Assembly (NCBI GenBank): GCA_019313725.1
Contig: JAFDAT010000001.1
Coordinates: 1-41,520, forward strand
Source: Deltaproteobacteria bacterium
GTDB taxonomy: Bacteria > Desulfobacterota > Desulfobacteria > Desulfobacterales > B30-G6
Direction: 5' to 3'
Length of the DNA stretch: 41,520 nucleotides
Made by a program: the position numbers and the translations under genes. Within the stretch, counting starts at the first letter, position 1. The number at the start of each line of letters is the position of its first letter. This document shows, in pieces, positions 10,053 to 33,384 of the stretch. The notes under the pieces are model-generated. The model saw only the letters and a program-made list of their open reading frames with translations. It was not told where the DNA came from and did no database searches.

Positions 10053-10100
10053 AAGGCGATGTAATTCTATGATTACAACGGGTTAACAGTGAATCACGCC

Positions 10101-10598
10101 TTATTCCACTTTGGTAAATGCTCTTGATTTTGCATTGCAGATAGGACAGGATTCAGGGGCTTCATTTTCCACCGTATTGCCGCACACAGAACATACGTAG
10201 TAACAATCAACATCCCGAGACCTATCAATATTATCCAATGCTTTCTGATATAATTCTGCATGGATTTTTTCAACTTAGTTAGCAAAACGAAAGCTGCGTT
10301 CAGCCACTTTATCTTCGTCTGCAATCGCCGTTTCTATCATTTTGGGATACATATTTTCAAATTCATATGTTTCACCGGTAATGGCTGCCTTCAAGTTATT
10401 CACAGTGTCCCCGACACCATTACAAGCCTTTAAGTGTGCATGGGCATGTACGGTCTCGGCTTCTGCAGCGGCTCTAAATAACATGGCAATCTTTACAAAT
10501 CCTTCGCTATCCGCTTTTTTGGCAAACGCCAGATATTTTCTATTGGCTTGAGACTCTCCAGCAAAGGCATCCATCAAATTTTCTTTAGTATCGCTCAT
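10101..10598 (-). pseudogene. Rubrerythrin (diiron domain + C-terminal rubredoxin-like CxxC..CxxC) interrupted by one in-frame TAA
   Basis: The ORF 10275..10598 (MSDTKENLMDAFAGESQANRKY...AEAETVHAH...RSFRFAN) stops at TAA 10275-10277. The same frame continues as VEKIHAELYQKALDNIDRSRDVDCYYVCSVCGNTVENEAPESCPICNAKSRAFTKVE to TAA 10101-10103. That extension supplies the second ExxH motif and the rubredoxin-like domain. SD GGAAGGT precedes the ATG at 10598. Confidence 0.7.
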
Positions 10599-10611
10599 AT
10601 TTACCTTCCAT

Positions 10612-11058
10612 TCATGAGGCCAGTTTTTCGCAAAGCCCTTTTGCATATTGATGACACGCTTGCATACCCGCATCTGTTTCCATTAATGCTTCGGTCAGGT
10701 TCAACGGCCCCAGATCGACAACATCCATTTTATATACATGCTGCATGGTTTCGAAAACCATGGGAGCCGCCTCACCACTATGGGTATGGGATCCGAACGC
10801 ACCGCCAATCTTCCCTAAAAGGTTCGCTTGTTCAGCTACAAAAAGGAATTGTTTCATACCCCCGGTCATATCTTTATGATATGTGGGACACCCAAAAAGA
10901 TAACCATCGAATCCTGACAGCTGCTCCGCCTTTTTCAACGTAGCTATCTTTTCAACGTGGGCTTCATTTCCTGCCATTCTAACGCCTTCAGCTAAATAGT
11001 TTGCCATTTTTTCAGTGGTACCCGCTCTGCTAATGAATGCAATCAATACTTTTTTCAT
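10612..11058 (-). CDS. Flavodoxin-family protein
   Basis: 148-aa ORF with an N-terminal FMN-phosphate loop (MKKVLIAFISRAGTTEKMA) and a flavodoxin-like alternating pattern. Lies 13 nt upstream of the rubrerythrin start on the same strand. Confidence 0.7.
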   Translation of the reverse strand: MKKVLIAFISRAGTTEKMANYLAEGVRMAGNEAHVEKIATLKKAEQLSGFDGYLFGCPTYHKDMTGGMKQFLFVAEQANLLGKIGGAFGSHTHSGEAAPMVFETMQHVYKMDVVDLGPLNLTEALMETDAGMQACHQYAKGLCEKLAS

Positions 11059-11384
11059 ACGCTCCCCCTCATAAAATTTTTAGTTACAACGTTAATATGA
11101 TGCTGAACAACTTCTGGGTTCTCTTCCAACAGTGCGATCTGTACGGAAATCATCTTTTTCTCACTGTAATAGCAACAGGCATGCCAAAACCTATGACCAC
11201 TATAACTACTTAAAATTTTAGAATATATTATAATTTCGTATGTCTCATTAACCTTTAAGCGAGACAAATTCGTATCGTGTATGATCTTTGTGACACATAC
11301 CCAACAAGAGTGTTGAGTAAACGCCAACATTGGGGTTAACATGGGGTTGAGACAGGACTGAGCATATGTTATTATGCCTGCATT

Positions 11385-12110
11385 ATGAAAGAGATACTGG
11401 TGCTTGGAGATGTTCACGCGAATTATCCCGCCTTGAAAGCTATCGGCGACTACCTTCAGATGGACCGGTTCAACCGGATAATCAACACCGGTGACCTCAC
11501 CGTTTACAGCACCTTTCCCAACGAAAGCATCCAATGGTTTAGGAACCTCGGCGACAAAGCGATCTGTATATTGGGCAATACCGATAAACGAATTTTAAAA
11601 ATCCTGAAAGGCAAAAAATTAAAAAAACCGAAAAAAAAGGACAAGCAGGTCATGTATTTCTGGACATCTGAAAACTTGTCCCAGGAAAACATCGCCTACT
11701 TAAAATCACTATCCAAAAAGAGTGATTTTAACATTGATGGGTTACGCATCGGTCTATTCCACGGCAGCTTAGACGATCCAAACGCCCAGTTGTTCCCCTC
11801 CACCCCGGACAGTCGATTCATCAAGCTGGCAAAAAATTCCCCCTATGGTGTACATATCATGGGACATTCGCATGTTCCTTTTTATAAAGTCATCGTGGGG
11901 GTACATTTCATCAACCCGGGCAGTGTGGGAAGAATGTTTGACGGGGATCCGCGGGCATCCTTTGCCATTCTTAAAGTGAGTTCAAGAAAAATCGGCGTGG
12001 AACATTTTCGCATACCCTACCCGGTAACAGATGTAATCAAGGGGTTGAAAAAATATAAATTACCTGATATCTATTGCAGAATGTTTCAAGCCGGAAAAAA
12101 GCTAAACTAG
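11385..12110 (+). CDS. Metallophosphoesterase (calcineurin-like / YfcE-MJ0936-type) with a Lys-rich insertion
   Basis: 241-aa ORF with MPE motifs (LGDVHAN, NTGDL, GNTD, GHSH). Insertion ILKGKKLKKPKKKDKQ at ~11592-11650. TAG stop. Confidence 0.75.
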   Translation: MKEILVLGDVHANYPALKAIGDYLQMDRFNRIINTGDLTVYSTFPNESIQWFRNLGDKAICILGNTDKRILKILKGKKLKKPKKKDKQVMYFWTSENLSQENIAYLKSLSKKSDFNIDGLRIGLFHGSLDDPNAQLFPSTPDSRFIKLAKNSPYGVHIMGHSHVPFYKVIVGVHFINPGSVGRMFDGDPRASFAILKVSSRKIGVEHFRIPYPVTDVIKGLKKYKLPDIYCRMFQAGKKLN

Positions 12111-12202
12111 CGTTCCCAACCTACATTCTCTATTACTGCTCCAGCTTTTGATAACAAGTCGTTCATAACGCGTAACGCTGCGCATACATGGCGGGCTACT
12201 AT

Positions 12203-12243
12203 ACCCTAAGGTTGCTTAAACAACATGGCAACGTATAGATAAT
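12203..12243. repeat. Solo copy of a dispersed ~40-bp element (core TAAACAACATGGCAA at 12217-12231)
   Basis: accctaaggttgcttaaacaacatggcaacgtatagataat matches 24914-24954 (accctatggttgcataaacaacatggcaaataatagataat). Lies upstream of ppk2. Confidence 0.7.
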
Positions 12244-12325
12244 TCACGGATTTTATCTCGGATCCCGCCAGGGTAATTTCAAAAGAATCGGGATTTTCAT
12301 ATCATCTTAAAGAAACGGGGGGAAA

Positions 12326-13327
12326 ATGAGTAAAAAGAATACACACAAAGCAAAATCCAAAGAGGCAAACAACAAGGCAAAAAAAAAGGCGCCCCTAAAG
12401 AACAATGTCATCAAGCTGGAAAAGACGTCCAAAAAAAAGGCCAAAAAAAAAGATAAAAAGATAAAAATGAAATTATCAGAGCACACGGCCTATAAAAATA
12501 AAGAGAAAGAAAAAGCAAAGAAACGAAAGGCTGTTTGGGTAAAAGAATTTACCCTGTATTACGAGGAGGAACTCCACAAACTCCAGATCGAACTATTAAA
12601 ATTGCAGCGGCAGGTAAGGCGCAAAGGGCTGCGGTTTTTAATGCTGTTTGAAGGACGCGATGCCGCCGGTAAAGGCGGCACGATCAAAAGAATTACAGAA
12701 CATCTGAATCCTCGCGGTACACGCGTCGTGGCGCTGCTTACACCAAGCGACACGGAGAAGACGCAATGGTATTTTCAGAGATACATGCAGCATCTTCCCT
12801 CGGCCGGTGAGATTGTACTGTTCGATCGCAGCTGGTACAACCGGGCCATGGTTGAACCGGTTATGGATTTCTGCACCGATGAACAAAACAAACGTTTTTT
12901 AAAAGATGTCCCTATGTTGGAAGAGATGTTGGTGAAGGATGGCATCAAACTGTTCAAATTCTTTTTTTCAGTTTCAAAGGATGAACAACTTCGCAGATTT
13001 GACTCCAGAGAAACAGACCCCCTGAAGCAGTATAAGATTTCCCCCGTTGATAAAATGGCCCAGGAAATGTGGGACGATTATACCGTCAGAAAGTTCCAGA
13101 TGTTGAATGAAACCAACCGAACCCTCTCCCCCTGGACCATCATTCGGTCCGACAATAAAAAATTGGCCCGTTTGAACTGCATCAAACATTTGTTGTCCCA
13201 AATCGATTATAAAGATAAAATTCCGCTGGAAGAACTCCAGACCGATCCAAATGTTCTTATTTCAGGTATCGATGAAATTAGATTCATGGAAGATAATCTG
13301 TTGACACAAATCGAACTGCCTGGGTAA
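12326..13327 (+). CDS. ppk2: Polyphosphate kinase 2 (single-domain PPK2) with a ~70-aa Lys-rich N-terminal extension
   Basis: 333-aa ORF with the PPK2 Walker A FEGRDAAGKGGTIKR and the FDRSWYNR block. Residues 1-~70 are poly-basic (KAKSKEANNKAKKKAP...KKKAKKKDKKIKMK...KEKEKAKKRK). Confidence 0.85.
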   Translation: MSKKNTHKAKSKEANNKAKKKAPLKNNVIKLEKTSKKKAKKKDKKIKMKLSEHTAYKNKEKEKAKKRKAVWVKEFTLYYEEELHKLQIELLKLQRQVRRKGLRFLMLFEGRDAAGKGGTIKRITEHLNPRGTRVVALLTPSDTEKTQWYFQRYMQHLPSAGEIVLFDRSWYNRAMVEPVMDFCTDEQNKRFLKDVPMLEEMLVKDGIKLFKFFFSVSKDEQLRRFDSRETDPLKQYKISPVDKMAQEMWDDYTVRKFQMLNETNRTLSPWTIIRSDNKKLARLNCIKHLLSQIDYKDKIPLEELQTDPNVLISGIDEIRFMEDNLLTQIELPG

Positions 13328-13393
13328 CCGATAATGTTCAGAAGCGTTGGCAAGTTTACAATATCTCTCAACCTATATACAAAGGAGGAGAAG

Positions 13394-13687
13394 ATGCCAG
13401 TTCAAGTAATCATCAAAAGAAAATTGATCATTGATAAGCCGAAAGAGATTTTTCCGCTTTTTTCAAAATTGCGTTCACGAGCGAAGGAACAGCCGGGTTA
13501 CATCGACAGCACAACGTTGAGAAGTGTTGATAATCCAGAAGCGTACATGGTCATCAGCACATGGGAAACGGCGGATGACTGGAAATCATGGTTCCAAAGC
13601 AAAGAACGGAGAGAAATTCAAGGTCGCGTGGATTCACTGATTGGAGAAAGGACCTTTTACACCATCTATGAAACCGTGAACCATTGA
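13394..13687 (+). CDS. ABM (antibiotic biosynthesis monooxygenase-like, ferredoxin-fold) domain protein
   Basis: The ORF-track entry starts at 13334. The ATG at 13394 has the strong SD AGGAGGAG just upstream. The ~97-aa product has the ABM-like pattern (GYIDSTTLRS...YMVISTWETADDWKSW). Confidence 0.55.
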   Translation: MPVQVIIKRKLIIDKPKEIFPLFSKLRSRAKEQPGYIDSTTLRSVDNPEAYMVISTWETADDWKSWFQSKERREIQGRVDSLIGERTFYTIYETVNH

Positions 13688-13728
13688 TACATTGGCGTAA
13701 AGATTATCAAGAAAGGTGTTAAATACCT

Positions 13729-14103
13729 ATGCACGTTAAACAACTATTAGAATCCAAGGGAAGTGAGGTATATACGATCTCTCCCGATGAAACGGTTTAC
13801 CAAGCCTTGCAGGTAATGGCTAAAAAAGAGATCGGTGTCCTGGTTGTCGTTGAAAACGCCAAAATGGTAGGGATTCTTTCCGAGCGGGACTATGCCCGCA
13901 AAGTGATCCTCAAAGGGAAGCACTCCCAAAAAACCCTGGTGAAAGAAATCATGACAACCCATGTGATTCACACAAACCCGGATCAAAAGGTGCAAACAAG
14001 TCTGGCATTGATGACCAAAAATCGTTTTCGCCATTTGCCGGTACTGAAAGATGATCAGTTGGTCGGCATCATTTCCATCGAAGACGTGCGACGCATGGTT
14101 TAA
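13729..14103 (+). CDS. CBS-domain pair protein
   Basis: 124-aa ORF with two CBS-like repeats (GVLVVVENAKMVGILSERD; HLPVLKDDQLVGIISIEDV). Confidence 0.75.
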   Translation: MHVKQLLESKGSEVYTISPDETVYQALQVMAKKEIGVLVVVENAKMVGILSERDYARKVILKGKHSQKTLVKEIMTTHVIHTNPDQKVQTSLALMTKNRFRHLPVLKDDQLVGIISIEDVRRMV

Positions 14104-14129
14104 TTTCCCCCATAGGGGTGATTATTGAC

Positions 14130-15926
14130 TCATGCGGCATCCAAAGCCTTTTTCTCTTCCAATTCAACGACTGTTTTAGCCATGTGTTTGCTGTGATCAT
14201 ATATCCTTTTCAGCTTTTCAATGATCTCCATCTCTATACTATAGGCCTCAAATTTACCTGAATCCTCGGAGACAAGCCTTTGGGTCTGATGCAAATTGGC
14301 CTGTTCGATAAGACGGTTCATATCGGCCTTCATAGAAACGACTCGCTTTGCATAAGCTTGGTCTTCTTCCACGACAGCTCTCAAAGCGGCTTTCAGCGCA
14401 TCGGCAACCACCACATGGAGTGTAAGTAAAACCTTCTGGGTGGCTTCACTTATCTTTACCCCTTTCTTGCGCCGTTGTTCTCCAATATTCACCATATTCA
14501 CTTCTATTACATCTCCGATACATTCCAGATCGTTGACAGTACCCATGAGTTTCAGCATTTTTTGGTTTTGGTAATCATTGAGTTTGAGCTTGCTGACGTT
14601 CCCCAGATAATTGACAATGTGTTTGTATAAAACATCGACCTCTTCATCCATATCCCGAACCGCCATCAAAGCTTCCTTATTACCCGTCATTACGGCCGGC
14701 ATCATGGCAACATGCATTAAGTCAACCCGCTTTCCCATCCGTTTGATTTCATACCGTGCCGCATCCAGCGCCAGACTGGGTGTATGAAACAACATTTCGT
14801 TCAGATATTTGGGCTGGAGCTCTTCGACTTCGGGAAGGGGTTTGTCTGGAACCAGGCGATACACGATCCTGGCAAAATAAGAAATAAACGGAAGAAAAAC
14901 AAGGGCACAGGTGACATTAAATATCGTGTGGGCATTGGCGACCTGCCTCGGCAATACAGAAGCGGCAGCCTGAAGGCCGGTAAGCCCTTCTCCTGCTGAT
15001 GGAGAAATGGCAACAACAAGCTTAACAAACGGGCCGATAAAGGGTAAAAACAGGAGTACGCCCGTAACGTTAAATAACACATGTACGACCGAAACCCGGA
15101 CCGCCTCACGGGGTTTGCCGATGGAGGCCAGAAATGCCGTCACACAAGTTCCGATATTTGCACCGAATGACAATGCGATGCCAGCCTGCAAGGAGATCAA
15201 TCCCTGCATGGCCAATACAAGGATGACCCCTGTAGTAGCAGAACTGGATTGAATCAAGGCGGTAAAAAGAGCTGCCACAAGGATGCCCAAAATCGGGTTG
15301 GACATCTGGGTCATCAGGTCAAGAAAAGGCTGGTAGCTCCTCAAAGGGCGCATAGCATCACTCATCACGCCCATGCCAAAAAAGATCATTCCCAGGCCCA
15401 TGATCATATATCCGTATTGTTGTATCTTTTCCTTTTTGGATATAAACAGAAGTCCGAAACCCACCGCCACCAGCAACAATGCATACTTGGTAACTTTAAA
15501 CGCTACAATTTGAGCCGTGATGGTGGTACCGATGTTTGATCCCATAACAATACCAATGGTTTGTGAAAGCGACATCAAACCTGCACTTACAAAACCGACC
15601 AGCATAACGGTGGTTACCGAACTGGACTGAATCACCGCCGTTACGATGGCGCCGGTGATCAATCCCATGATGCGGTTGCTCGACAACATGCCCAGAATGT
15701 CTTTCATTTTTTCACCGGCCACATTCTTCAAAGCATCGCTCATTCTTTCCATCCCGTAGAGGAACAAAGACAGGCCGCCCAACAATCCGATTCCTAAGAA
15801 AAACCAACTGGGGTTACCATTTTCCGCTGCACTTCCTGCTTGGACAACCATAGGTGAGAATAAAAAATATATGCACAATCCGATTAAACCCAGTTCCAGC
15901 ATGCGGCGAGAATATATTGGTTTCAT
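14130..15926 (-). CDS. Na+/phosphate cotransporter family protein (NptA-type repeats + C-terminal PhoU-like domain)
   Basis: Large polytopic ORF with duplicated QSSSxTT motifs (VIQSSSVTTVM, LIQSSSATTGV) and a helical PhoU-like C-terminus. The start is placed at ATG 15926, with SD AGGAGG 7 nt upstream. The ORF track extends to 15959. Confidence 0.8.
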   Translation of the reverse strand: MKPIYSRRMLELGLIGLCIYFLFSPMVVQAGSAAENGNPSWFFLGIGLLGGLSLFLYGMERMSDALKNVAGEKMKDILGMLSSNRIMGLITGAIVTAVIQSSSVTTVMLVGFVSAGLMSLSQTIGIVMGSNIGTTITAQIVAFKVTKYALLLVAVGFGLLFISKKEKIQQYGYMIMGLGMIFFGMGVMSDAMRPLRSYQPFLDLMTQMSNPILGILVAALFTALIQSSSATTGVILVLAMQGLISLQAGIALSFGANIGTCVTAFLASIGKPREAVRVSVVHVLFNVTGVLLFLPFIGPFVKLVVAISPSAGEGLTGLQAAASVLPRQVANAHTIFNVTCALVFLPFISYFARIVYRLVPDKPLPEVEELQPKYLNEMLFHTPSLALDAARYEIKRMGKRVDLMHVAMMPAVMTGNKEALMAVRDMDEEVDVLYKHIVNYLGNVSKLKLNDYQNQKMLKLMGTVNDLECIGDVIEVNMVNIGEQRRKKGVKISEATQKVLLTLHVVVADALKAALRAVVEEDQAYAKRVVSMKADMNRLIEQANLHQTQRLVSEDSGKFEAYSIEMEIIEKLKRIYDHSKHMAKTVVELEEKKALDAA

Positions 15927-15986
15927 ATAGTACCTCCTGAACAAACCCCATAGTTGCAACGATAGGGTAATATCGTATGGCCTGCT

Positions 15987-16466
15987 TTACGTTTTCTTGG
16001 ATGGTTTGATGACGATTACAGGAATGGGAGATAATCGCACCAGTCGTTCCGCTTTTGAGCCTATCAATACATGCGACAATCCGGTCCGTCCATGACTTCC
16101 AACGATAATCATGCTGACCTGTTTTTTTTCCCCAATTTCTATGATTCTCGTCACCGGTGTCCCTGAAACCAAAAGGGGTACGGCTTGCTGTATTGGCGTC
16201 TGGTCGGGGCAGGTTTTTTTCATCTTTTGTAGAAACTCCTCCATCATCTCATGGGCAGCCTCTTCCATACTCCGAAGGAACATTTCCTTTTGCATTTTCT
16301 GATTGTAAAAACCCGGCGCTTCAGCAGGATCATGGATAACATGTAGCACTAAAATCTGGGCCTGAAGTTTATTGGCCAGCTTACCGGCAAAGATCAGCGC
16401 TTCTTCCGAAAACAATGTAAAATCGACCGCAACCAATAAAGTTTCTTTTTCCTTTTTTGGGGCCAT
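15987..16466 (-). CDS. Universal stress protein (UspA family)
   Basis: The USP fold signature lies in the C-terminal 159 aa (TLLVAVDFT..., MIIVGSHGRTGLSHVLIGSKAERLV). ATG 16466 is preceded by GGAGGA (16473-16478). The Arg-rich upstream part of ORF 15987..16940 is an alternate frame of the neighbouring repeat. Confidence 0.8.
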   Translation of the reverse strand: MAPKKEKETLLVAVDFTLFSEEALIFAGKLANKLQAQILVLHVIHDPAEAPGFYNQKMQKEMFLRSMEEAAHEMMEEFLQKMKKTCPDQTPIQQAVPLLVSGTPVTRIIEIGEKKQVSMIIVGSHGRTGLSHVLIGSKAERLVRLSPIPVIVIKPSKKT

Positions 16467-16542
16467 ATGCATTCCTCCTAAAAAACAAGGCAATCCAACT
16501 TTATAGACTGGATTGCCTTGACCGTCTTTGCAACATTGGGGG

Positions 16543-17001
16543 CTATTTCTTCCCTTTCTTCTTTGCTTTCTTTGGTTTTGCTTTCTTGGCCTTTGCTTTC
16601 TTTGGTTTTGCTTTCTTGGCCTTTTCTTTCTTTGGTTTTTCCTTCTTGGCCTTTGCCTTCTTGGCTTTCTCCTTCTTGGCTTTCTCTTTCTTGGCCTTGG
16701 CCTTCTTGGCTTTCTCTTTCTTGGCCTTGGCCTTCTTGGCTTTCTCTTTCTTGGCCTTGGCCTTCTTGGCTTTCTCTTTCTTGGCTTTCTCTTTCTTGGC
16801 CTTCTCTTTCTTGGCCTTCTCTTTCTTGGCCTTCTCCTTCTTGGCCTTCTCTTTCTTGGCCTTCTCCTTCTCGGCCTTTTCTTTCTCGTTCTTCTTCTCA
16901 GGCGCTTTCTTTTCGCCTTCTGCGGTTTTCGTCCCCGCATCGTCAGCTTTTACCTTGACCTCTTCCTCGACTTTTTTCTGATCCTCTTTTTCATTTACCA
17001 T
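16543..17001 (-). CDS. Lysine-rich low-complexity protein: acidic N-terminus + ~110 aa of KEKAKK/KAKAKK repeats (histone-H1-like)
   Basis: 152-aa ORF. Strong SD GAGGAGG (17007-17013) lies 5 nt before ATG 17001. Only this frame of the repeat has a ribosome-binding site and fits the operon spacing (15 nt after the sixA-like stop). TAG stop. Confidence 0.7.
16556..16895. repeat. Coding tandem-repeat tract (15- and 30-bp periods)
   Basis: Includes three perfect 30-bp units, tttctctttcttggccttggccttcttggc, at 16681-16770. Runs of cttctctttcttggc units follow at ~16800-16860. Confidence 0.9.
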
Positions 17002-17016
17002 CTTGTCCTCCTCTTG

Positions 17017-17511
17017 TTATCCATGTTTTTTGGGGAATTCAAAATTTTTCAATTTCCCGGGGTTTTCATCAATCCCTGACCATGAAGTGATCTCCAAGAC
17101 AACACAACAGACCCCGCTGGTGGGTATGTTACTGATCGGGTAATTGCCGATGGTGTTGGCGAGTTGAGTTAATGCCGGATTATGGCCGATTAACATGACT
17201 TTATTTACCTGATCCTCTATGTTCTTTAAAAGATGCATCAGGTTCATCTCACTTGATTCGTAGATCGATTCAACGTATCGAATCCCCTCAAGAGGATAGC
17301 CGATCTCATGTGCTAAAATCCTGGCAGTCATTGCAGCCCGCGTTGCCGGGCTTGAGATGATGAGGTCCGGGTCAACGCTCAGTTCATGAATAATTTTTCC
17401 CATGAACGGTGCATTCTTGCGACCACGTTTATTCAATGGCCGTTCAAAATCATCTAATTTAGGATATTTCCAACTGGATTTGGCATGTCTAACCAGACAG
17501 AGTTCTTTCAT
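17017..17511 (-). CDS. SixA-type histidine phosphatase superfamily protein
   Basis: LCLVRHAKSSW (RHA/G catalytic motif), ...LIGHNP... About 164 aa from ATG 17511 (SD GAAGG). The ORF track extends to 17601, but that would overlap the upstream small gene. Confidence 0.75.
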   Translation of the reverse strand: MKELCLVRHAKSSWKYPKLDDFERPLNKRGRKNAPFMGKIIHELSVDPDLIISSPATRAAMTARILAHEIGYPLEGIRYVESIYESSEMNLMHLLKNIEDQVNKVMLIGHNPALTQLANTIGNYPISNIPTSGVCCVVLEITSWSGIDENPGKLKNFEFPKKHG

Positions 17512-17570
17512 AGACCTTCGCAATCGTGTATTGAAGTTCGTTTCACCCATGGTCGAGTCTTGCTGAAAAT

Positions 17571-17735
17571 TTATTCCAATGCAACAGGTTTGTGTAACCA
17601 CTTTTTTTTATTTGCCACTCTGCCGCATTTTTTACAGACATATCGTGGCACTTTTACAATATCTTTGAACGCATCGAAATTATCGCCGATGGCTGCTTCT
17701 TTCCACTTACAGAGTCGTTTTTCTTTTTTTGCCAT
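17571..17735 (-). CDS. Small (54 aa) basic protein, unknown function
   Basis: MAKKEKRLCKWKEAAIGDNFDAFKDIVKVPRYVCKKCGRVANKKKWLHKPVALE. ATG 17735 has SD AAGGTGG 5 nt upstream and lies 20 nt after the ParA-like stop. The ORF-track start at 17795 would overlap the ParA-like gene. Confidence 0.5.
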   Translation of the reverse strand: MAKKEKRLCKWKEAAIGDNFDAFKDIVKVPRYVCKKCGRVANKKKWLHKPVALE

Positions 17736-17755
17736 TATCGCCACCTTTTCGAATT

Positions 17756-18508
17756 TCAATGCCTGGAAAATAGGGTGTCTTGAATGTTTTCCCACAGTTG
17801 CTGATATGCTCGGGATGCCGTCGAACCAGGAGAAAACGCCGTCACCGGTTCCCGGTAAACACCCATTTTTTCGATCATCGACAGATAAGGAATGTCACTT
17901 TGTAAAACGTTGCTAAATGTTTTTGATATCGTTGCCATTAACACTTTATGCAGTTTTTTTCGTCGATCGACCATGGAAAAAAACGTGTATATCCTACCCG
18001 GGTCGATTTTTTCCTTTTTACAAAAAGATAACAATTGCTTATACGTTCGAATCGAAAGTGTCGTCGGAATCAAGGGGACGAGCGTACAGTCGACAGTGTT
18101 GAACACATTCTCCGCGAGGACGCTGATACTTGCCGGGCAGTCAAGGATGATGACATCATATTCATCCTTAAACGGTTTTAAAATTTGATGGAGACGATTT
18201 TTTGAACGCTTGAGTTTGTTAAAAGTAATGTCCAGTCTGCGGTGAGAAAAGTCCGCCGGCAGCAGATCGAGGTTTTCATAATCCGTTCCCTTGGCACTCT
18301 TGTATACCTTTTTGCCGCCTTTTAGAAATCCCTTTGCGCCCGACTTCAGTTTCGGCTTTACTCTAAAGTAATAGGTTGCAGAGCTTTGAGGGTCTAAATC
18401 ACAGATCAGGGTTCTGGCACCTGCCCGGGCAGACAGATAGGATAAATTAACCGCCGCGGCAGTCTTACCGACACCGCCTTTATTACTGTAGAGTGCGATC
18501 GTCGTCAT
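17756..18508 (-). CDS. Orphan ParA/MinD-family P-loop ATPase (no ParB, no N-terminal HTH)
   Basis: 250-aa ORF with the deviant Walker A including the signature lysine (YSNKGGVGKTAAAVNLS), A-prime ICDLDPQ and Walker B VIILDCP. SD AAGGTG before the ATG. Lies 12 nt after the CHAD gene stop. Confidence 0.85.
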   Translation of the reverse strand: MTTIALYSNKGGVGKTAAAVNLSYLSARAGARTLICDLDPQSSATYYFRVKPKLKSGAKGFLKGGKKVYKSAKGTDYENLDLLPADFSHRRLDITFNKLKRSKNRLHQILKPFKDEYDVIILDCPASISVLAENVFNTVDCTLVPLIPTTLSIRTYKQLLSFCKKEKIDPGRIYTFFSMVDRRKKLHKVLMATISKTFSNVLQSDIPYLSMIEKMGVYREPVTAFSPGSTASRAYQQLWENIQDTLFSRH

Positions 18509-18520
18509 GCAAACACCTTT

Positions 18521-20068
18521 TTATGGTTTTCGGGCAAAGAGTTCTCGAAATAACATCTGATTTTGCGATGATGAAAAGCGGGTAAAAGTTTGGTCGAAAG
18601 ATTCCTTTTCCAACTGCCGCTTCGTGTCCAACTTATCGATCAGGCTGCCAATGGCAACGAGTGTTTTCTTCACTTGGGAACGATTCGAAGGCAATTTTTC
18701 GGCAACGACATACAGATATTTCACCTGGACACTGAGATCGTTATAGTCCCCGAGCCTGTCTTGTAGCTTTTTCAGTTGCTCAACCAAAATGTTGATTTTT
18801 TTTAGCGGAAAAAGATTGGAAAAAAACTGGATTAAATACCGCAATTTTTTACATTGAATTCTGAGCTTATGCAGCATGTCATCATCGCCGTTTTCAAGAA
18901 TCAGATTCCCTGCTTTGATAACATTTTTATACTGCTTGTAGATTCTCTTTCGAGCCAAATCAAATACAGAACTGTCGGCGTCGGATTCCGCGCCAAGGTC
19001 CTCTTGCGGTTCATTCAGAAAAGTTTCCCAGTCCTGCATGATTTTCCTGTATTTTTTAGATTTCATGCTTCTGACGACTTTTCGGAATGACGTTGATCGT
19101 TGTTTATTTAAATAGGCAAACAAGGGGTCGATGTCATCCCGTAGAACAGGAGGCAGCATCGCCTTGTATGTGGCCTGATTCAGCAGATAAACATCCAGAT
19201 CGCGTAGCGCGCTCGATATTTTGCCAATATAAGAAAAATTTTTTGCAAACCGAGCGATCGTCTTCTTGGGAAAAATATTTTTATTCCAAACCAAAGCGGA
19301 TCTAGTCCTTCGAACGGCAACCCGGTAATCGTGAAGAAATTCCGTATCGAGGTCCTGTTCAATATTGGCCGCATTGATCTTTATGACTTGAAACAGAAAT
19401 CGCAGGATGATTTTTGTGGCCTCGTCGGAGCGCATCTCAGGATGGAGTTGTATATTTAATTTTGTAGAATAACGGTTCGGATCCTGCCCTGTCTCCCGCA
19501 TCGCCTGAAAGAATATATCTTCGTCTCCGCTTGAGGTAAGTCCTAAATCTTCAAGTTGATTATTAATTTTTCTCGAATACTTAGGATATCCTCTGACAGG
19601 CTTTACCCACAATTGCATGGCTATGGTCCTGGAATCTTTCCTGCCGGGCTGTCGAACGGTTTCAAAGAAAAGTCTTGCCACGGTTTTTTCGTCCTGGTTT
19701 AAAATCCGATACGGGGTCGCCCGGGAAACTAAATCCGCACGTTTTAAGAGTCTTCTCATTTTTATGACAGGTTCCAGGTACCTTTTAAAATCGCCTTCCG
19801 GAAAATCCCATATGAAACAGGGTGCCGGTTTGATGTCATGACTGTAAATAATTCGATCTTGGCCCAGTTTACGTAACATCAGTCTGCCTTGGGAAGAAAA
19901 CAGGACCAGTGATTTGTTAAAAAAACGCCAGTCAAATGTGTCGTAGATGGTCAGTCGCCCGGTAATCGGCGATTCTTTTTTTATGGTATGGCGTGTAGCC
20001 AATTGACGGCTGATTTGGCGTTCGTCATCATCGCCGGCGAGATCGAATTTAACAATATTTGGCATCAT
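18521..20068 (-). CDS. CHAD-domain protein with N-terminal CYTH-like region
   Basis: CHAD signature HDYRVAVRRTRSAL plus later helical repeats (LHKLRIQCKKLRY). The N-terminal YDTFDWRF.. pattern is CYTH-like, but I do not see an ExExK motif. The ATG at 20068 overlaps the ppk1 TGA (TGATG), consistent with translational coupling. Confidence 0.75.
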   Translation of the reverse strand: MMPNIVKFDLAGDDDERQISRQLATRHTIKKESPITGRLTIYDTFDWRFFNKSLVLFSSQGRLMLRKLGQDRIIYSHDIKPAPCFIWDFPEGDFKRYLEPVIKMRRLLKRADLVSRATPYRILNQDEKTVARLFFETVRQPGRKDSRTIAMQLWVKPVRGYPKYSRKINNQLEDLGLTSSGDEDIFFQAMRETGQDPNRYSTKLNIQLHPEMRSDEATKIILRFLFQVIKINAANIEQDLDTEFLHDYRVAVRRTRSALVWNKNIFPKKTIARFAKNFSYIGKISSALRDLDVYLLNQATYKAMLPPVLRDDIDPLFAYLNKQRSTSFRKVVRSMKSKKYRKIMQDWETFLNEPQEDLGAESDADSSVFDLARKRIYKQYKNVIKAGNLILENGDDDMLHKLRIQCKKLRYLIQFFSNLFPLKKINILVEQLKKLQDRLGDYNDLSVQVKYLYVVAEKLPSNRSQVKKTLVAIGSLIDKLDTKRQLEKESFDQTFTRFSSSQNQMLFRELFARKP

Positions 20069-22236
20069 CACTCTCGTTTCACGTCGTGATTATCAGGAAC
20101 ATGATTTTTCATGGTTCTCGATTGCCTGCCGATGAGATCAATCAGTGCCTCCTGGGCAGGTCTGGGCTTTTCACCTTTTTGGGGTCGTCGTCTGGAATAG
20201 CTGCCATCGGGCTGCATATCCCAGGCAGAGCAGTTGTCATTCTCGTAAATCTGCAGTTTTTGCACAAGCTCCTTTTTGAGTTTGGGATCGGTGACGGGTG
20301 TGACGGACTCCATGCGACGGTCAAGGTTTCGCCGCATCCAATCTGCCGAACCAATAAAAAATTCAGGATCACCGGCGTTTTCAAAGCAATACATTCTGCT
20401 GTGCTCTAAAAAACGACCGAGTGTACAGAATACCCGAATGTTCTCGGACAGCCCGGGAACCCCCGCGCGCAGGCAGCACAGGCCCCTTATGTTCAAACTG
20501 ATGGGCACACCCGCTTGGCCGGCGCGATAAAGCTCCTGTATAATACGCGTATCCTGAAGCTGATTCATCTTCACGTTTATACCACACGGTTTTCCTTTTC
20601 GTTTGTGCTCCGCCTCACGGCGGATCAGCTCAGTAATCCGCTCACGAAGGTTGTGGGGAGCAACCAGCAATTTATCATAATTCGGATACGGGTTCGCACT
20701 GGTCAATTCATTAAACAGCGCGGCAACGTTAGCACCTAGCTCTGGATCACAGCTTAAAATTCCCATGTCTTCGTAGATTCGCGCGGTGTCCGTGTGATAG
20801 TTCCCTGTTCCTATATGGACGTAGCGATGAATACCATCCTCTTCTTCACGGACGACAAGTGCCAATTTGACGTGAGTTTTCAACCGCTCTACGCCATAAG
20901 AAACATGTACCCCTTCCCGTTCCAAAAGTCTCCCCCATGCTATGTTGGGCGCCTCATCGAACCGGGCGGTGATCTCCACCAGCACCGCGACCTGCTTGCC
21001 TTTCCGTATCGCAAACTGAAGTGCTTGAATAATAGGGGAATCGCTGCTTGTACGATAGATGGTAAGCTTAATGGCCAGCACTTTTGGATCCATTGCCGCG
21101 CACTGAAGGAAGTTGAGTACGGAAGTATCAAAACTATGGTAGGGGTGGTGAAGCAGGATATCGGCTCGGCGGATTTCGGCAAACATCTGTTTGGGATCGT
21201 TTTGATATATTCCTGAAAGGCGGGGATGGGTTACGGGCTTATGCGGAGGATCACGCAGTTCCGGGCGATTCTTGACAGGAAACTTCATCAGATCCGCGAG
21301 CCCCATCAGACCCTTGACACTTTCGACATCTTCTGAATCGACGTCTAACTGTTCGGCTAACCAGCACATCAAGTCTTTGGGCATGTCGGCACTAACCTCC
21401 AGCCGAACCACACCGGCAAATTTTCGTGCGGTTAATTCGTGGGTCACCATACTGATGAAGAATCCGGGGGTGGAATCGGCATCAAAATCGTCAAGCTCGG
21501 TTTGTTCCCAGGGGTCATCCTTGGCTACTCGGGTAACGCGAAAAAAATAGCAGAATAGTTTTTCCGCTTTGGGAAACAACTGTTCGAGATTGGCTGCGAT
21601 CACCTGCTCCAAGGGAACAAATCCGCTGTCGTCCGCCAAAGGCACCCAACGGGGTCGGTTCGCCGGAACCTTGATCCGTACGAAACGATAGCGCTTTTTT
21701 TTCTTTTCCTTCACCTCGATGGCCAGATTCAGCCCCAAATTACTGATAAAAGGAAATGGATGCGACATATCCACGGCTAAAGGCGTCAGAATCGGTTCCA
21801 CTGATTCCGTAAAATATGCGGACATCTGTGTACGCTGGTTTTTTTTCAGTACCTTGTATTCCAGAATGGGAATTGCCTCTTTTGCCAGAGCAGGACGAAG
21901 TTTTTTTTGCACGAGGCGGGATACCAGGGCTGACTGGGCATGCAATTCAGCGCGGCACGCCCTCAGTTGCTCATCGGGAGCGAGGCCGTCACGGGATGGC
22001 TTTTGTTTTTTTTTCTGAATTTTCCGCTTGAGTCCACCCATTCGCTTCATCGCGAACTCATCGTAAAGCATACCCATAATGCCCGCAAATTTTACCCGTT
22101 CGAGCAACGGCAGCTCAGGGTCTTGTGCCAGGGAGAGCACCCGGCGTGCAAAACTGAGCCAGCTTAATTCCCGGTTGATAAATGCATCCGAGGAATCGAT
22201 TTCAATGGCTTGAGGTTTTTTTTTCATAGATGTCAT
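20068..22236 (-). CDS. ppk: Polyphosphate kinase 1
   Basis: 722-aa ORF with FINRELSWLSFARRVLSLAQDP..PLLERVKF at the N-terminus, LLHHPYHSFD, and RLKTHVKLALVVR (phosphohistidine region). Confidence 0.9.
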   Translation of the reverse strand: MTSMKKKPQAIEIDSSDAFINRELSWLSFARRVLSLAQDPELPLLERVKFAGIMGMLYDEFAMKRMGGLKRKIQKKKQKPSRDGLAPDEQLRACRAELHAQSALVSRLVQKKLRPALAKEAIPILEYKVLKKNQRTQMSAYFTESVEPILTPLAVDMSHPFPFISNLGLNLAIEVKEKKKKRYRFVRIKVPANRPRWVPLADDSGFVPLEQVIAANLEQLFPKAEKLFCYFFRVTRVAKDDPWEQTELDDFDADSTPGFFISMVTHELTARKFAGVVRLEVSADMPKDLMCWLAEQLDVDSEDVESVKGLMGLADLMKFPVKNRPELRDPPHKPVTHPRLSGIYQNDPKQMFAEIRRADILLHHPYHSFDTSVLNFLQCAAMDPKVLAIKLTIYRTSSDSPIIQALQFAIRKGKQVAVLVEITARFDEAPNIAWGRLLEREGVHVSYGVERLKTHVKLALVVREEEDGIHRYVHIGTGNYHTDTARIYEDMGILSCDPELGANVAALFNELTSANPYPNYDKLLVAPHNLRERITELIRREAEHKRKGKPCGINVKMNQLQDTRIIQELYRAGQAGVPISLNIRGLCCLRAGVPGLSENIRVFCTLGRFLEHSRMYCFENAGDPEFFIGSADWMRRNLDRRMESVTPVTDPKLKKELVQKLQIYENDNCSAWDMQPDGSYSRRRPQKGEKPRPAQEALIDLIGRQSRTMKNHVPDNHDVKRE

Positions 22237-23004
22237 CTATATCAACATATCAAAAGCTGTCTCGCACCGGCCACACGAATAGACCGAGGGCCTGTTCTTT
22301 GTGGTGCTGAACGCCGTAATACAAATGCAAGCAATCATTACCAAAACCCAAATCGTTTTTTGCTGTATTTTTATTTTTCGTGCTCCTTGGTTTTGCGGAT
22401 GGAGTTATCCGTTTGCTTTTCAGAACAACTATTTTTCTATATTTCTTCGATCAAATTGTGAATATAGTCTAACCGGCGGACGTCATCAACAAAAATATTG
22501 ATGCGCTATTGGAAATGGGTATTTTTGATCGTTCGATCATTCGTGAAGTCATTCGTACCAAAAAATCTCATATGGTCATCAATAAACTTAAAAACGGAAA
22601 ACAACTACTCAGGGTTGCCAATCCCATTTTTAATCAATAATTCAAATCCCTTTTTCTTTATCGTCACTTAATGCATAGCGTCTGGAATGCACTAATTTTG
22701 CCGACAAGTTGTCGTCCACCCGGCTGACCCGTCATATTTGTTTCGCACTTTTGTGTTTTCGTGTTTGTTTAGATCCTTTTAACTCCGTCTGCGCCGTCGC
22801 CAGTTTTAACGTGCTGTTCAACAACATTCTTTTTCAATAATCAGTGCGGTGAGTCCGTGGGGTACTGTGCCTGACAGCGGAAGACAAAATTCAAATCGTT
22901 ACTGATGGCAGGTCTGAGGAACTTTCTCGCGATTCGATGAGGGGGTCTTTTCGAGTCGGATCAATGACGAGGAAATGATAACAGATGACATCAGACCGGC
23001 ATTC

Positions 23005-23361
23005 TCAAGCCAGAGAACCTTCAAAGAGAAACTCCATCACGCCGGCAAAAGTGTCCCCCTCATAAGATGGAACATTCACGATGGTGAGTTTTCCGTCCGG
23101 AGTGTCCAGGGTGTAGTAATATAGATTTCTCTTCTTTTCCTTGTATTCTGCAAAGAGCTTTTCGAGTTTTTTCATGGTCTCGGGCTTATGGCAATCACGC
23201 ATGTGGCTTCCCACAAAACCTTCCACCCCCATGCTGGCCTTAAACATTTGTTTACATTTTTCGTTGGCATAGGTCACCTTGAAATCAGCATCACACGCTA
23301 CGACCGCCGTATTCAAACTCTCCAACATTTCCTTTACATCGCCCATGGTGTGCTCTTTCAT
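23005..23361 (-). CDS. Small stand-alone PAS-domain protein
   Basis: 118-aa ORF with a PAS-like pattern (LNTAVVACDADFKVTYANEKCKQMF...GKLTIVNVP). Confidence 0.55.
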   Translation of the reverse strand: MKEHTMGDVKEMLESLNTAVVACDADFKVTYANEKCKQMFKASMGVEGFVGSHMRDCHKPETMKKLEKLFAEYKEKKRNLYYYTLDTPDGKLTIVNVPSYEGDTFAGVMEFLFEGSLA

Positions 23362-23544
23362 TTAGATGAATTGATGAGACATGACTCTTCAGAAGAACGA
23401 GTATGGATAAATTGACCCCACATGTCAAAGGAAATAGCGTCTAAATATGTCAGGGTTTTATGCCATGCTGCAAAAGCTGTATTCCAGGCAATATATGCCT
23501 GAATGAGGACGAAAAATGTTCTGATTAAACCAAGGCCGCCTGTT

Positions 23545-24684
23545 TCATACGTTTTTTTTGATTTTAATTATCTGAACAGCCATCAAGGAAATCAGGCTGA
23601 AGACAGCACCGCACACGAATGGAATTCGATAATCAATCATCCACAGTACACCGCCTATCGCCGGGAGAACGACAGCCGCGATATGATTTATGGTAAAACT
23701 CACCGAGATGCTGGATGCTATATCACCGGGGTCCGCGATCTTTTGGAAATAGGTCTGGATGGCGATGTGGAAATTATAAAAAACCTGATCCAAAACATAT
23801 AAAAGTGCCACAACCATTTTCGAGTGCACCGTTGCATATGCAAGGAAAATAACGATCAGGCTGGCATATTCCAGGGACAGCACTTTTCTTTCACCGAATC
23901 TGATGATACTCCTGCCGATCAGAGGATATAGGAAAAAAATCAGCGCATTGTTGATCACAAAAAGGATGGTGATTTCCCGAACCGAGAAGTCAAAATTTCT
24001 TACCAAAAGAAAAACAGCAAATGCCATGAATATCTGGCGGCGGGCACCGGCCATGAACGTGAGAAAATAGAACAACCAATACTTTTTCCTTAAAACCATT
24101 TTTTTACGCTGGGGAGGCAAATTGGTGCTGGCCGGGTTTTGGGTCATCCCCCAGATACCTGCCATCGTGATCATGCCGCCAATGAGCAGGTAAAGCTGTG
24201 CATAACTCAAAAAAGGGGAGAAACTGAATATCAGAACACCGACGCCGATATTGGTTAAAGACGCCAGGCTGCCTAATTTCCCGAATACCCATGGTGATTG
24301 CTCCTCGGCAAAATACTGAAGTGTCAGGGAGTCGCAGGTCGTATCGAAGTAGTGAAACCCGAAACTCATGATCAATGTGGAAAAAATAAGCCCTGAAAAG
24401 GATGGCAGCAACCCGGTAACTGCCATCCCGAGTCCTAAAACGATAATAGCCAATGCGGATAGACGGTGCTCCTTTACCACCAGCAGAAAATATACAACCA
24501 GAAAGGCCAGAAAGCCGGGAATTTCCCTCACAGATTGGATTAATCCGACATGATTACCTTTCAATGCAACGACTTCGACGGCAAAGTTGTTGAACAGCGT
24601 CAACCAGGATTCCAATCCCAGGGTTGATGCGATGGTGAGGACCACCAGATAGCGGTACATTTTACGTTGTTCTGCACGGATCAT
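23545..24684 (-). CDS. MFS-type transporter (about 12 predicted TM segments)
   Basis: 379-aa highly hydrophobic ORF with a central basic loop (PPQRKKMVLRKK) between two 6-TM halves. Confidence 0.65.
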   Translation of the reverse strand: MIRAEQRKMYRYLVVLTIASTLGLESWLTLFNNFAVEVVALKGNHVGLIQSVREIPGFLAFLVVYFLLVVKEHRLSALAIIVLGLGMAVTGLLPSFSGLIFSTLIMSFGFHYFDTTCDSLTLQYFAEEQSPWVFGKLGSLASLTNIGVGVLIFSFSPFLSYAQLYLLIGGMITMAGIWGMTQNPASTNLPPQRKKMVLRKKYWLFYFLTFMAGARRQIFMAFAVFLLVRNFDFSVREITILFVINNALIFFLYPLIGRSIIRFGERKVLSLEYASLIVIFLAYATVHSKMVVALLYVLDQVFYNFHIAIQTYFQKIADPGDIASSISVSFTINHIAAVVLPAIGGVLWMIDYRIPFVCGAVFSLISLMAVQIIKIKKNV

Positions 24685-24913
24685 GTTTTATTTTCAATAG
24701 TTTGAGATGAATTTAGAGGTCTAACACCATTATTGCCAAATCCGGAACCATGTCAGCCGGTTTCAGATTATCGATAACTGCCTTACTTGATAACATTGAA
24801 CTACCCGCTTACTTGTTAGGATTTCGCATCATCTCCAAAATGTCAAACCCGGAGTGCTGCGCCGATACAATCTGGATATTACTTTTGAATCATACTGTGA
24901 AGCAGCACGGTTC

Positions 24914-25078
24914 ACCCTATGGTTGCATAAACAACATGGCAAATAATAGATAATACATTGTTATTATACCCAATATCATAGCGATAGCGCAATTTCTTGG
25001 ATGCCCCTCCTGGTGAATTCGAAGGATGGCATCTATTTTGCCATGTTGTTTACCCTTCGGCAACGTTAGGGTTCACCC
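24914..25078. repeat. MITE-like imperfect inverted repeat (arms 24914-24954 and 25033-25078)
   Basis: The 15-nt core TAAACAACATGGCAA at 24928-24942 recurs as its reverse complement at 25038-25052. Both arms start with ACCCTAnnGTTGC. A related solo copy lies at 12203-12243. Confidence 0.65.
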
Positions 25079-33299: not shown

Positions 33300-33384
33300 T
33301 ACCCGCAAGCATAACGGACAATTTAAAAAAATATTCCCGGGACATCGGGATCTATTATCAATGATTCAGCCAAAGGAGTACAAT

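Follow-up and report, generated by a model that had tools for sequence, protein, structure and literature searches.

What does a ParA/MinD-family ATPase do among the genes of polyphosphate (polyP) metabolism, and with which protein does it work? The question is raised by a 41,520-bp contig of a 'Deltaproteobacteria bacterium' metagenome-assembled genome (MAG), referred to here as the window, in which the gene of such an ATPase (hereafter ParA) follows ppk1 and a gene for a CHAD-domain protein (Table 1). A first-pass annotation of this DNA had described an eight-gene operon. It proposed that the ATPase, partnered by a 54-aa basic protein and/or a poly-lysine (K-rich) protein, spaces or segregates polyP granules on the nucleoid. 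We arrive at a related but different reading, to which we give a probability of about 0.55. ParA and the CHAD protein would form a two-protein ParA/adaptor module for the ATP-driven organisation of polyP granules, a function we infer from sequence, from structural models and by analogy.

The linkage between ParA and the CHAD gene extends far beyond the window, to dozens of genomes in six phyla. A scan of GTDB with one genome per species gave 292 ParA relatives, of which we took the best 80 (57–82% identical) together with their 10-kb flanks. Represented among these are Desulfobacterales, Poribacteria, several Chloroflexota classes, Zixibacteria and Pseudomonadota. The linkage count was restricted to the 69 loci, from five phyla, whose sequence reaches 1.6 kb or more upstream of ParA. 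A gene for a ~515-aa CHAD protein lies directly upstream of ParA on the same strand in 68 of these; in the lone exception (locus L066) PPK1 is found directly upstream instead. The suggestion that this ParA clade is syntenic with ppk1 and CHAD therefore holds across phyla, for CHAD at this frequency and often for ppk1 or ppk2 as well. The modal gap between CHAD and ParA is ~11–12 nt, with an AGAGG/AAGG motif 6–10 nt before the ParA ATG. The gap after the CHAD stop in the window is 12 nt and contains an AAAGGTG Shine-Dalgarno-like site. The two genes are apparently translationally coupled, and the pairwise identities of ParA and CHAD co-vary (r = 0.91). In Chloroflexota and Poribacteria the CHAD-ParA pair often stands alone among unrelated genes, so the pair, and not the eight-gene array, is the unit.

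Other genes of the island recur around this unit. In related loci, ppk1 is upstream of CHAD-ParA in about 25 cases, PPK2 copies (75–87% identical) lie within the same island in 27, and the metallophosphoesterase is present in 21. A SixA-like gene is found in 47 loci, either after ParA (65–76% identical) or, as a 43–48% paralogue, directly upstream of CHAD. The pair of universal stress protein (USP) and Na/Pi cotransporter (NaPi) genes recurs in at least 12 loci, and ABM and CBS genes recur adjoining PPK2 or NaPi. Desulfobacterales have two paralogous arrangements, and some MAGs carry both. Type A is PPK1-CHAD-ParA-(GuK-like, CYTH)-54aa-SixA-Krich-USP-NaPi, of which the window is a compact form. 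Type B is SixA-CHAD-ParA-CYTH-helix-hairpin-helix/basic protein, followed by metallophosphoesterase, ABM, two PPK2, the 54-aa gene and the K-rich gene. In type-B loci (L056:10802-11964, L059:2923-4066 and 14 others) ParA is followed by a 153-aa CYTH protein with an intact EIERKF motif. The conserved 191-aa protein after CYTH shows, by eye, an N-terminal helix-hairpin-helix, and its C-terminal half is basic and contains KKPKKKKY. It is a candidate DNA tether; tblastn finds no counterpart of it in the window. A metagenome scan with the CHAD protein returned 2 near-identical loci, both with the order CHAD-ParA-54aa-SixA.

The CHAD protein itself points to the granule. Its CHAD domain (aa ~205–511) scores 170.9 bits in Pfam against a cut-off of 25.6, and the protein matches CtCHAD of Chlorobaculum tepidum (PDB 3E0S/6QV7) at E 2.5e-55. 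Binding of polyP by CtCHAD has been shown both biochemically and crystallographically, and residues His253, Arg256, Arg260 and Arg296, which were mutated in the same work, contact polyP (PMC6537752). They correspond to H246, R249, R253 and R289 in the window protein, and none of the four varies in an alignment of 57 sequences. The AlphaFold2 model of the full-length protein (pLDDT 88, pTM 0.81) matches 6QV7 in Foldseek with TMt 0.93 and aligns over its whole length to E. coli YgiF (5A60; E 7e-10). The N-domain (aa 1–200) gives weak Foldseek matches to ThTPase, AtTTM3 and SaTTM (E 1e-5 to 1e-3, TMt 0.5–0.6). It has no CYTH profile match in Pfam or NCBIfam, and hhalign shows no similarity to the stand-alone CYTH genes of related loci (probability 0.6%). 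The ExExK motif is absent, and strand 1 reads IVKFDL. Of the earlier label 'CYTH/CHAD protein', the CHAD part is firmly supported by its profile, while the CYTH part survives as fold resemblance alone. Judged from the model, the N-domain is best read as TTM-like and degenerate; with ExExK missing, it probably does not act as a triphosphatase. The published work on CtCHAD was done with residues ~201–518 only, and its text makes no mention of the adjacent ParA (PMC6537752).

That adjacency is found in C. tepidum itself. In strain TLS, ParA Q8KE10 (AAM72118), 48.6% identical to the window ParA, adjoins CtCHAD Q8KE09 (AAM72119), a full-length protein with the same 520-aa architecture as the window CHAD protein, and the cluster order is PPK1, a 265-aa protein, CHAD and ParA. 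ParA is directly downstream of CHAD in 6 of the 8 Chlorobiaceae CHAD loci sampled. A 243–387-aa protein with repeated 'CSGN.LTSLEG.P' and no Pfam family (L085:7183-7980, L086:6866-7972, L087:3803-4966) is always directly upstream of CHAD in Chlorobiaceae, whether ParA is present or not. Paracoccus chromids carry a 62-aa gene, CHAD, ParA (45% identical), CYTH and NUDIX. The 62-aa protein of Paracoccus aestuarii p296221 (L081:6299-6487) has a basic N-terminal tail and, by eye, a ribbon-helix-helix-like core, and its gene overlaps the CHAD start. Its predicted architecture is like that of ParG-type small partners or of a repressor of the operon. A 2024 study reports 'folD, ppk, parA and CHAD' conserved together in all Acidithiobacillus species and comments on this ParA with its role in plasmid partition in E. 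coli and nothing further (PMC10892726).

Among more distant relatives the neighbours vary. No CHAD neighbour is found beside the ParA relatives of Pontibacter (43%) and Marinobacter (39%). The latter, on pMAQU02 of Marinobacter nauticus VT8 (L084:6001-6747), lies beside pyruvate kinase, acetyl-CoA transferase and phbB (polyhydroxybutyrate synthesis), and may be another storage-related orphan ParA. A 36%-identical relative is placed beside PPK2 and PPK1, and a 38% relative has just a metallophosphoesterase beside it. Domain fusions were sought among the best 150 of 360 proteins found at E <= 1e-30 in 1.84 billion cluster representatives (50% identity). At least 6 of these 150 are ParA-CYTH fusions, confirmed by Pfam and with ExExK intact. 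In one case (L096) the fusion gene comes directly after the gene of a 513-aa CHAD protein, and the same island holds PPK2, a Na/Pi transporter and a His_Phos_1 gene. Through the fusions the ParA clade is connected with (poly)phosphate-binding domains by evidence that does not depend on gene order. A possible CHAD-ParA fusion, P0401 (710 aa), is doubtful and was not counted; its middle looks out-of-frame and half a CHAD domain is detected. The Arg/Pro-rich tails of the long ParAs P0266, P0270 and P0289 look like gene-calling artefacts. P0269 combines ParA with a sucrose-6F-phosphate-phosphatase-like HAD domain in one protein.

ParA has the features of a working ATPase of its family. The deviant Walker A motif is SNKGGVGKT (S8-N-K10-GGVGK15-T16) and includes the signature lysine. 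Among 72 diverse clade members K10 and K15 do not vary, and the Walker A'/B aspartates D37, D39 and D123 are likewise invariant across the clade. ATP binding and hydrolysis are expected because of this invariance. ParA/MinD members that have the signature lysine are positioning ATPases, each working with one cargo-bound partner. There is no helix-turn-helix domain, as the first-pass annotation had noted, since the protein is just 250 aa long. Its AlphaFold2 model (pLDDT 95) gives Foldseek TM values of 0.86–0.90 to Soj/ParA, with 23–27% identity over the structural alignments, and lower values to McdA (~0.85), BcsQ/FleN (0.78–0.79) and MinD/FlhG (0.76–0.79). The clade profile run against the PDB finds ParA 8RAY at 1e-41, HpSoj at 5e-33 and TtSoj at 3e-31, and then MinD at 1e-19, McdA 6NON at 6e-18 and FleN at 1e-14. 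All 30 NCBIfam matches are below their cut-offs, the best being NF041546 (ParA_partition) with 82.7 bits against 180. No curated Soj or plasmid ParA equivalog is therefore reached, a grouping that had been named as an argument against a granule role. The window ParA has a net charge of +18 (pI 9.8). The median is +16 (pI 9.7) in the Desulfobacterota/Chloroflexota/Poribacteria branch, and two CHAD-unlinked relatives have −4 and 0. A basic segment after DLDPQ, YYFRVKPKLK...FLKGGKKVYK, is specific to the ParA clade and conserved in it. All island proteins of the window are basic too, and together with the basic ParA branch this is consistent with polyanion binding.

We propose the following mechanism. 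The CHAD protein would coat the granule and act as both cargo adaptor and ATPase partner, the role of ParB or McdB elsewhere. Its granule binding is supported by homology to the characterised binder CtCHAD, and its putative engagement of ParA is suggested by the fact that the two genes are invariantly adjacent, apparently translationally coupled and co-varying. ParA-ATP dimers, if they behave as their family does, would bind a polyanionic matrix and be released on hydrolysis. The module is predicted to localise to granules and to affect their position, serving granule spacing, anti-coalescence and inheritance. The other genes of the Desulfobacterales islands would supply polyP synthesis, uptake and probably polyP-DNA bridging, the last with the K-rich protein as an AlgP/H1-like polyanion bridge. 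If this explanation holds, the matrix is rather probably the nucleoid, because this fits the ParA family paradigm. The polyP surface is, on the same premise, a tentative second candidate, because DNA-binding residues are missing, the charge is extreme and CYTH fusions exist. Taken on its own and without that premise, we consider unlikely the full version in which the ATP-dependent ParA binding surface is the polyP granule and neither DNA nor membrane, an inorganic polyanion serves as the patterning matrix and the degenerate-TTM/CHAD protein is the activator, so that the system sets granule number, size and inheritance across many phyla. If true, it would be the first energy-consuming polyP granule organiser and would add a third kind of ParA/MinD matrix.

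Several observations weigh against a positioning module of this kind. Soj R189 and HpSoj K227/K230 are what we take to be the residues of non-specific DNA binding. HpSoj IPK227-SV-K230-L aligns to ParA IPY208-LS-M211-I, and the Soj R189 position likewise falls on Tyr208. The close clade conserves Tyr at the Soj R189/HpSoj K227 position (at least 80%), wider relatives vary there, and the HpSoj K230 position is non-basic in the ParA clade. Because these canonical positions are non-basic, nucleoid binding is not to be assumed, and the sequence gives no support to the earlier phrase 'on the nucleoid'. Chlorobi ParAs are near neutral (−2 to +7), so the strong basicity is branch-specific and not a family trait; strong positive charge as a mark of all CHAD-linked ParAs is weakened by these members. 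The two Chlorobiaceae loci that lack ParA (2/8) have identical flanks, which makes ParA an accessory gained and lost in this family and dispensable in some close relatives. The ParA-CYTH fusions with an intact catalysis motif suit an enzyme or a regulator no less well than they suit a ratchet, and a ratchet needs ParA to release its cargo. In Synechococcus elongatus, polyP granules are spaced without any dedicated ParA (PMC13556221), so a dedicated ParA system is not general.

Some of these points also suit a different kind of function, a metabolic or regulatory ATPase whose ATP-dependent dimer regulates or recruits the polyP enzymes of the granule and positions nothing. Its targets would be the CYTH/TTM triphosphatase, PPK1/PPK2 or the SixA-like protein, and polyP turnover would be coupled to the ATP level, in the manner of BcsQ or FleN. 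Such a role agrees with the catalytic ExExK motif in the fusions, with a stand-alone CYTH gene directly after ParA in type-B Desulfobacterales loci and Paracoccus, with the absence of canonical DNA-binding residues, with the gain and loss of ParA among close Chlorobiaceae, and with BcsQ and FleN as structural neighbours (TM 0.78–0.79). However, the nearest proteins by both sequence and fold are partition ParAs (Soj) and not BcsQ/FleN, the invariant neighbour, whose TTM-like domain appears degenerate, binds polyP and is not an enzyme, and no CYTH or kinase gene lies beside the pair in the window or in many Chloroflexota/Poribacteria loci. We hold this role, the main rival to ours, to be doubtful, though it deserves to be kept in mind. 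The partners originally proposed, the 54-aa and/or poly-Lys proteins acting in the manner of McdB with the CHAD protein as a mere granule marker, now appear quite improbable. Both proteins are small, highly basic and conserved within Desulfobacterales islands, and the Lys/Arg-rich N-terminus of the 54-aa protein (MAKKEKR) is like that of ParA-activating peptides. Against this, tblastn at E 1e-5 detects neither of them in the CHAD-ParA loci of Chloroflexota, Poribacteria, Zixibacteria, Chlorobi and Paracoccus, although such a search has little power for proteins of 54 aa or of low complexity. Their positions also vary, and type-B loci place both 5–7 kb from ParA on the opposite strand, beside PPK2. 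They are better read as accessories limited to Desulfobacterales that track each other and not ParA, and the conserved partner is the CHAD protein.

A MinD/FlhG-like ATPase that brings PPK1/CHAD to a membrane site or pole is very unlikely. Polar polyP granules do occur in some bacteria (review PMC13052382), and MinD and FlhG are among the structural neighbours (TM 0.76–0.79). But the ParA C-terminus carries no amphipathic membrane-targeting helix, its last 10 residues being neither conserved nor amphipathic, no minC/minE or flagellar genes are found among the neighbours in the window, and the profile similarity to MinD is ~14 orders of magnitude weaker than that to Soj. The remaining explanation, by which ParA belongs to ordinary DNA partition, as a chromosomal orphan or a plasmid remnant, and stands beside ppk1 by chance, could appeal to Soj as the closest solved structure and to the members on Paracoccus plasmids/chromids. 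It is effectively refuted by the synteny with CHAD across phyla. In addition, ParA is below all ParA equivalog cut-offs, and the Paracoccus ParA sits inside a CHAD-ParA-CYTH-NUDIX operon and not in a partition locus. The whole 41.5-kb window has no ParB, replication or plasmid genes, and a parS scan of it gave 2 matches at 3 mismatches against 1.2 expected, no more than chance would give, in agreement with what had been said of the locus earlier.

The accessory proteins have features of their own. In the 54-aa protein, C9, W11, C34-x2-C37 and H48 are invariant in 37 homologues of Desulfobacterales loci, and the family pattern is C.W...IV..P...C.KCG.V..KK..LHKP. From this pattern it is a probable CCCH Zn-binding mini-protein. 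It defines an unannotated family that is always in Desulfobacterales polyP islands and always near the poly-lysine gene. The K-rich gene is built from a 15-nt unit in 20.4 copies, and its product is 51% Lys with a net charge of +51. Related loci contain 27 K-rich open reading frames, most of them positional counterparts (51–196 aa) after the SixA or 54-aa gene. The SixA-like protein scores 50.9 bits with TIGR00249 (sixA), below the cut-off of 74.5, and the N-terminal half of His_Phos_1 with LVRHAKS is present. The first 75 aa of PPK2 (12326–12550), ahead of the catalytic domain, are lysine-rich with a net charge of +24; this tail may be granule- or DNA-targeting. In loci of Chloroflexia and Zixibacteria (L072, L074), the PPK2 genes in the vicinity of CHAD-ParA have similar short K-rich heads.

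Table 1. Features of the polyP island in the window.
Feature	Position	Strand	Supporting match or description
ppk1, polyphosphate kinase 1 (722 aa)	20068..22236	-	four PPK1 Pfam domains, E 4e-29 to 7e-68
CHAD protein (515 aa)	18521..20068	-	Pfam CHAD 5.6e-50
ParA/MinD-family ATPase (250 aa)	17756..18508	-	Pfam AAA_31/CbiA 8.9e-34
54-aa basic protein	17571..17735	-	no Pfam or NCBIfam family
SixA-like histidine phosphatase (164 aa)	17017..17511	-	His_Phos_1 1.6e-9
Poly-lysine (KEKAK x20) histone-H1/AlgP-like protein (152 aa)	16543..17001	-	no family match
Terminator-like hairpin + T6	16486..16520	-	14-bp stem, between K-rich gene and USP
Universal stress protein (USP)	15987..16466	-	Pfam Usp 7.7e-26
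Na/Pi cotransporter with C-terminal PhoU domains	14130..15926	-	Na_Pi_cotrans 1.5e-65, PhoU 1.5e-15, NF037997 1.2e-72
Calcineurin-like metallophosphoesterase	11385..12110	+	Metallophos_2 3.2e-20
PPK2 with lysine-rich N-terminal tail	12326..13327	+	Pfam PPK2 3.8e-97
ABM-like protein	13334..13687	+	weak NCBIfam match
CBS-pair protein	13729..14103	+	clear NCBIfam match

The layout of the eight minus-strand genes, from ppk1 to the Na/Pi cotransporter, agrees with the first-pass annotation in coordinates, order and spacing: a 1-nt overlap of ppk1 and CHAD (TGATG), then 12, 20, 59, 15, 76 and 60 nt. CHAD could also start at a GTG 3 nt further upstream, and the SixA-like gene at an ATG at 17550. The array is indeed packed, but a single operon is the less likely reading. 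The hairpin between the K-rich gene and USP (16520–16486) is the strongest site in the terminator scan, and because of it there are probably two transcription units, ppk1 to K-rich and USP-NaPi, rather than one. The plus-strand metallophosphoesterase, PPK2, ABM and CBS genes recur alongside the module in related loci, so the island is larger than described earlier. No Rfam family is found at the polyP locus, and PADLOC gives no defence-system match except one P-loop hit. Between ppk1 and a small PAS-domain gene (23005–23361) there are ~770 nt without a convincing open reading frame (22237–23004), also with no Rfam family. The G+C content of the island (window ~10000–25000) is 0.42–0.47, with ppk1 at 0.51, and that of the flanks (1–10 kb and 25–37 kb) is 0.50–0.57. 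ParA identity between Desulfobacterales, Poribacteria and Chloroflexota is 60–69%. The low G+C of the island and this degree of identity suggest that the module spread horizontally. The remaining window holds ordinary metabolic genes of a chromosome: hut genes, a molybdopterin oxidoreductase, RACo, MttB methyltransferases and ABC transporters. The mttB homologue at 26604–28091 (+) is interrupted by an in-frame amber TAG (27585–27587) followed by a PYLIS_3 element (Rfam 76.8 bits, gathering score 38); this mttB, from a Desulfobacterota MAG, encodes pyrrolysine. Two other MttB-family genes (33361–34821 and 36161–37597) have no internal stop, and the RACo activase is at 8034–10052.

PolyP granules are found in bacteria generally, with regular spacing in several species. 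The literature searched describes no ParA system for them, as the first-pass annotation had supposed. A 2024 ParA/MinD review does not mention polyP as cargo, and a 2025 polyP-chromatin review names AlgP as the sole factor. A 2025 review of organelle positioning enters the ATP dependence of polyP granules as unknown and says that it 'remains to be seen' whether their localisation consumes energy (PMC13052382), and an August 2026 study calls the granule-spacing mechanism of S. elongatus 'yet-to-be-discovered' (PMC13556221). In the same literature the gene cluster is already noted once, in passing and uninterpreted, for Acidithiobacillus (PMC10892726). What the locus offers is a specific candidate ATPase-adaptor pair, present in cultured Chlorobaculum tepidum, Paracoccus and Acidithiobacillus. 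C. tepidum is genetically tractable. Since the pair occurs in cultured organisms and the polyP-binding domain of the adaptor has already been crystallised, the question of granule organisation is directly testable. If our interpretation is true, the ParA/MinD family would gain a new cargo and a new adaptor class; the system itself would be a ParA/MinD positioning system and not categorically new. It would also be of relevance to the polyphosphate-accumulating organisms used in phosphorus removal.

The proposed module can be compared with four known systems. Soj/Spo0J is the closest in sequence and fold, and the deviant Walker A, the signature lysine and the catalytic Asp are shared. Unlike Soj, the window ParA has no parB/parS and stays below the NCBIfam ParA_partition cut-off; it has Tyr at the Soj R189/HpSoj K227 position, the clade segment after DLDPQ, and a net charge of +18 compared with about −3 for TtSoj. 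Only one protein, the histone-H1-like AlgP of P. aeruginosa, has to date been shown to influence the spacing of polyP granules (PMC9239181). The 152-aa KEKAK-repeat protein in the same island of the window is a compositional analogue of AlgP, not a claimed homologue. AlgP acts without a known ATPase and its repeat is KPAA, not KEKAK, and the K-rich protein is limited to Desulfobacterales, whereas the ParA-CHAD pair occurs in many phyla. With the CHAD phosins and YgiF (CtCHAD, PptA, E. coli YgiF), the window protein shares a true CHAD domain, the polyP-contact residues and, for YgiF, a full-length alignment; it differs in that its N-terminal TTM-like domain lacks ExExK. McdA/McdB offers the nearest parallel in design. 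In both cases a small ParA-type ATPase without a helix-turn-helix is encoded beside a cargo-bound partner (here putative), without ParB/parS, and is dedicated to a non-DNA, membrane-less metabolic body (here inferred). McdA itself is a distant relative (profile E 6e-18 compared with 5e-33 for Soj), the canonical DNA-binding residues are missing in the window ParA, and no carboxysome genes are found in the window. The partners differ most clearly: McdB is small and disordered, while the partner here would be a folded 515-aa TTM-like/CHAD binder of an inorganic polymer.

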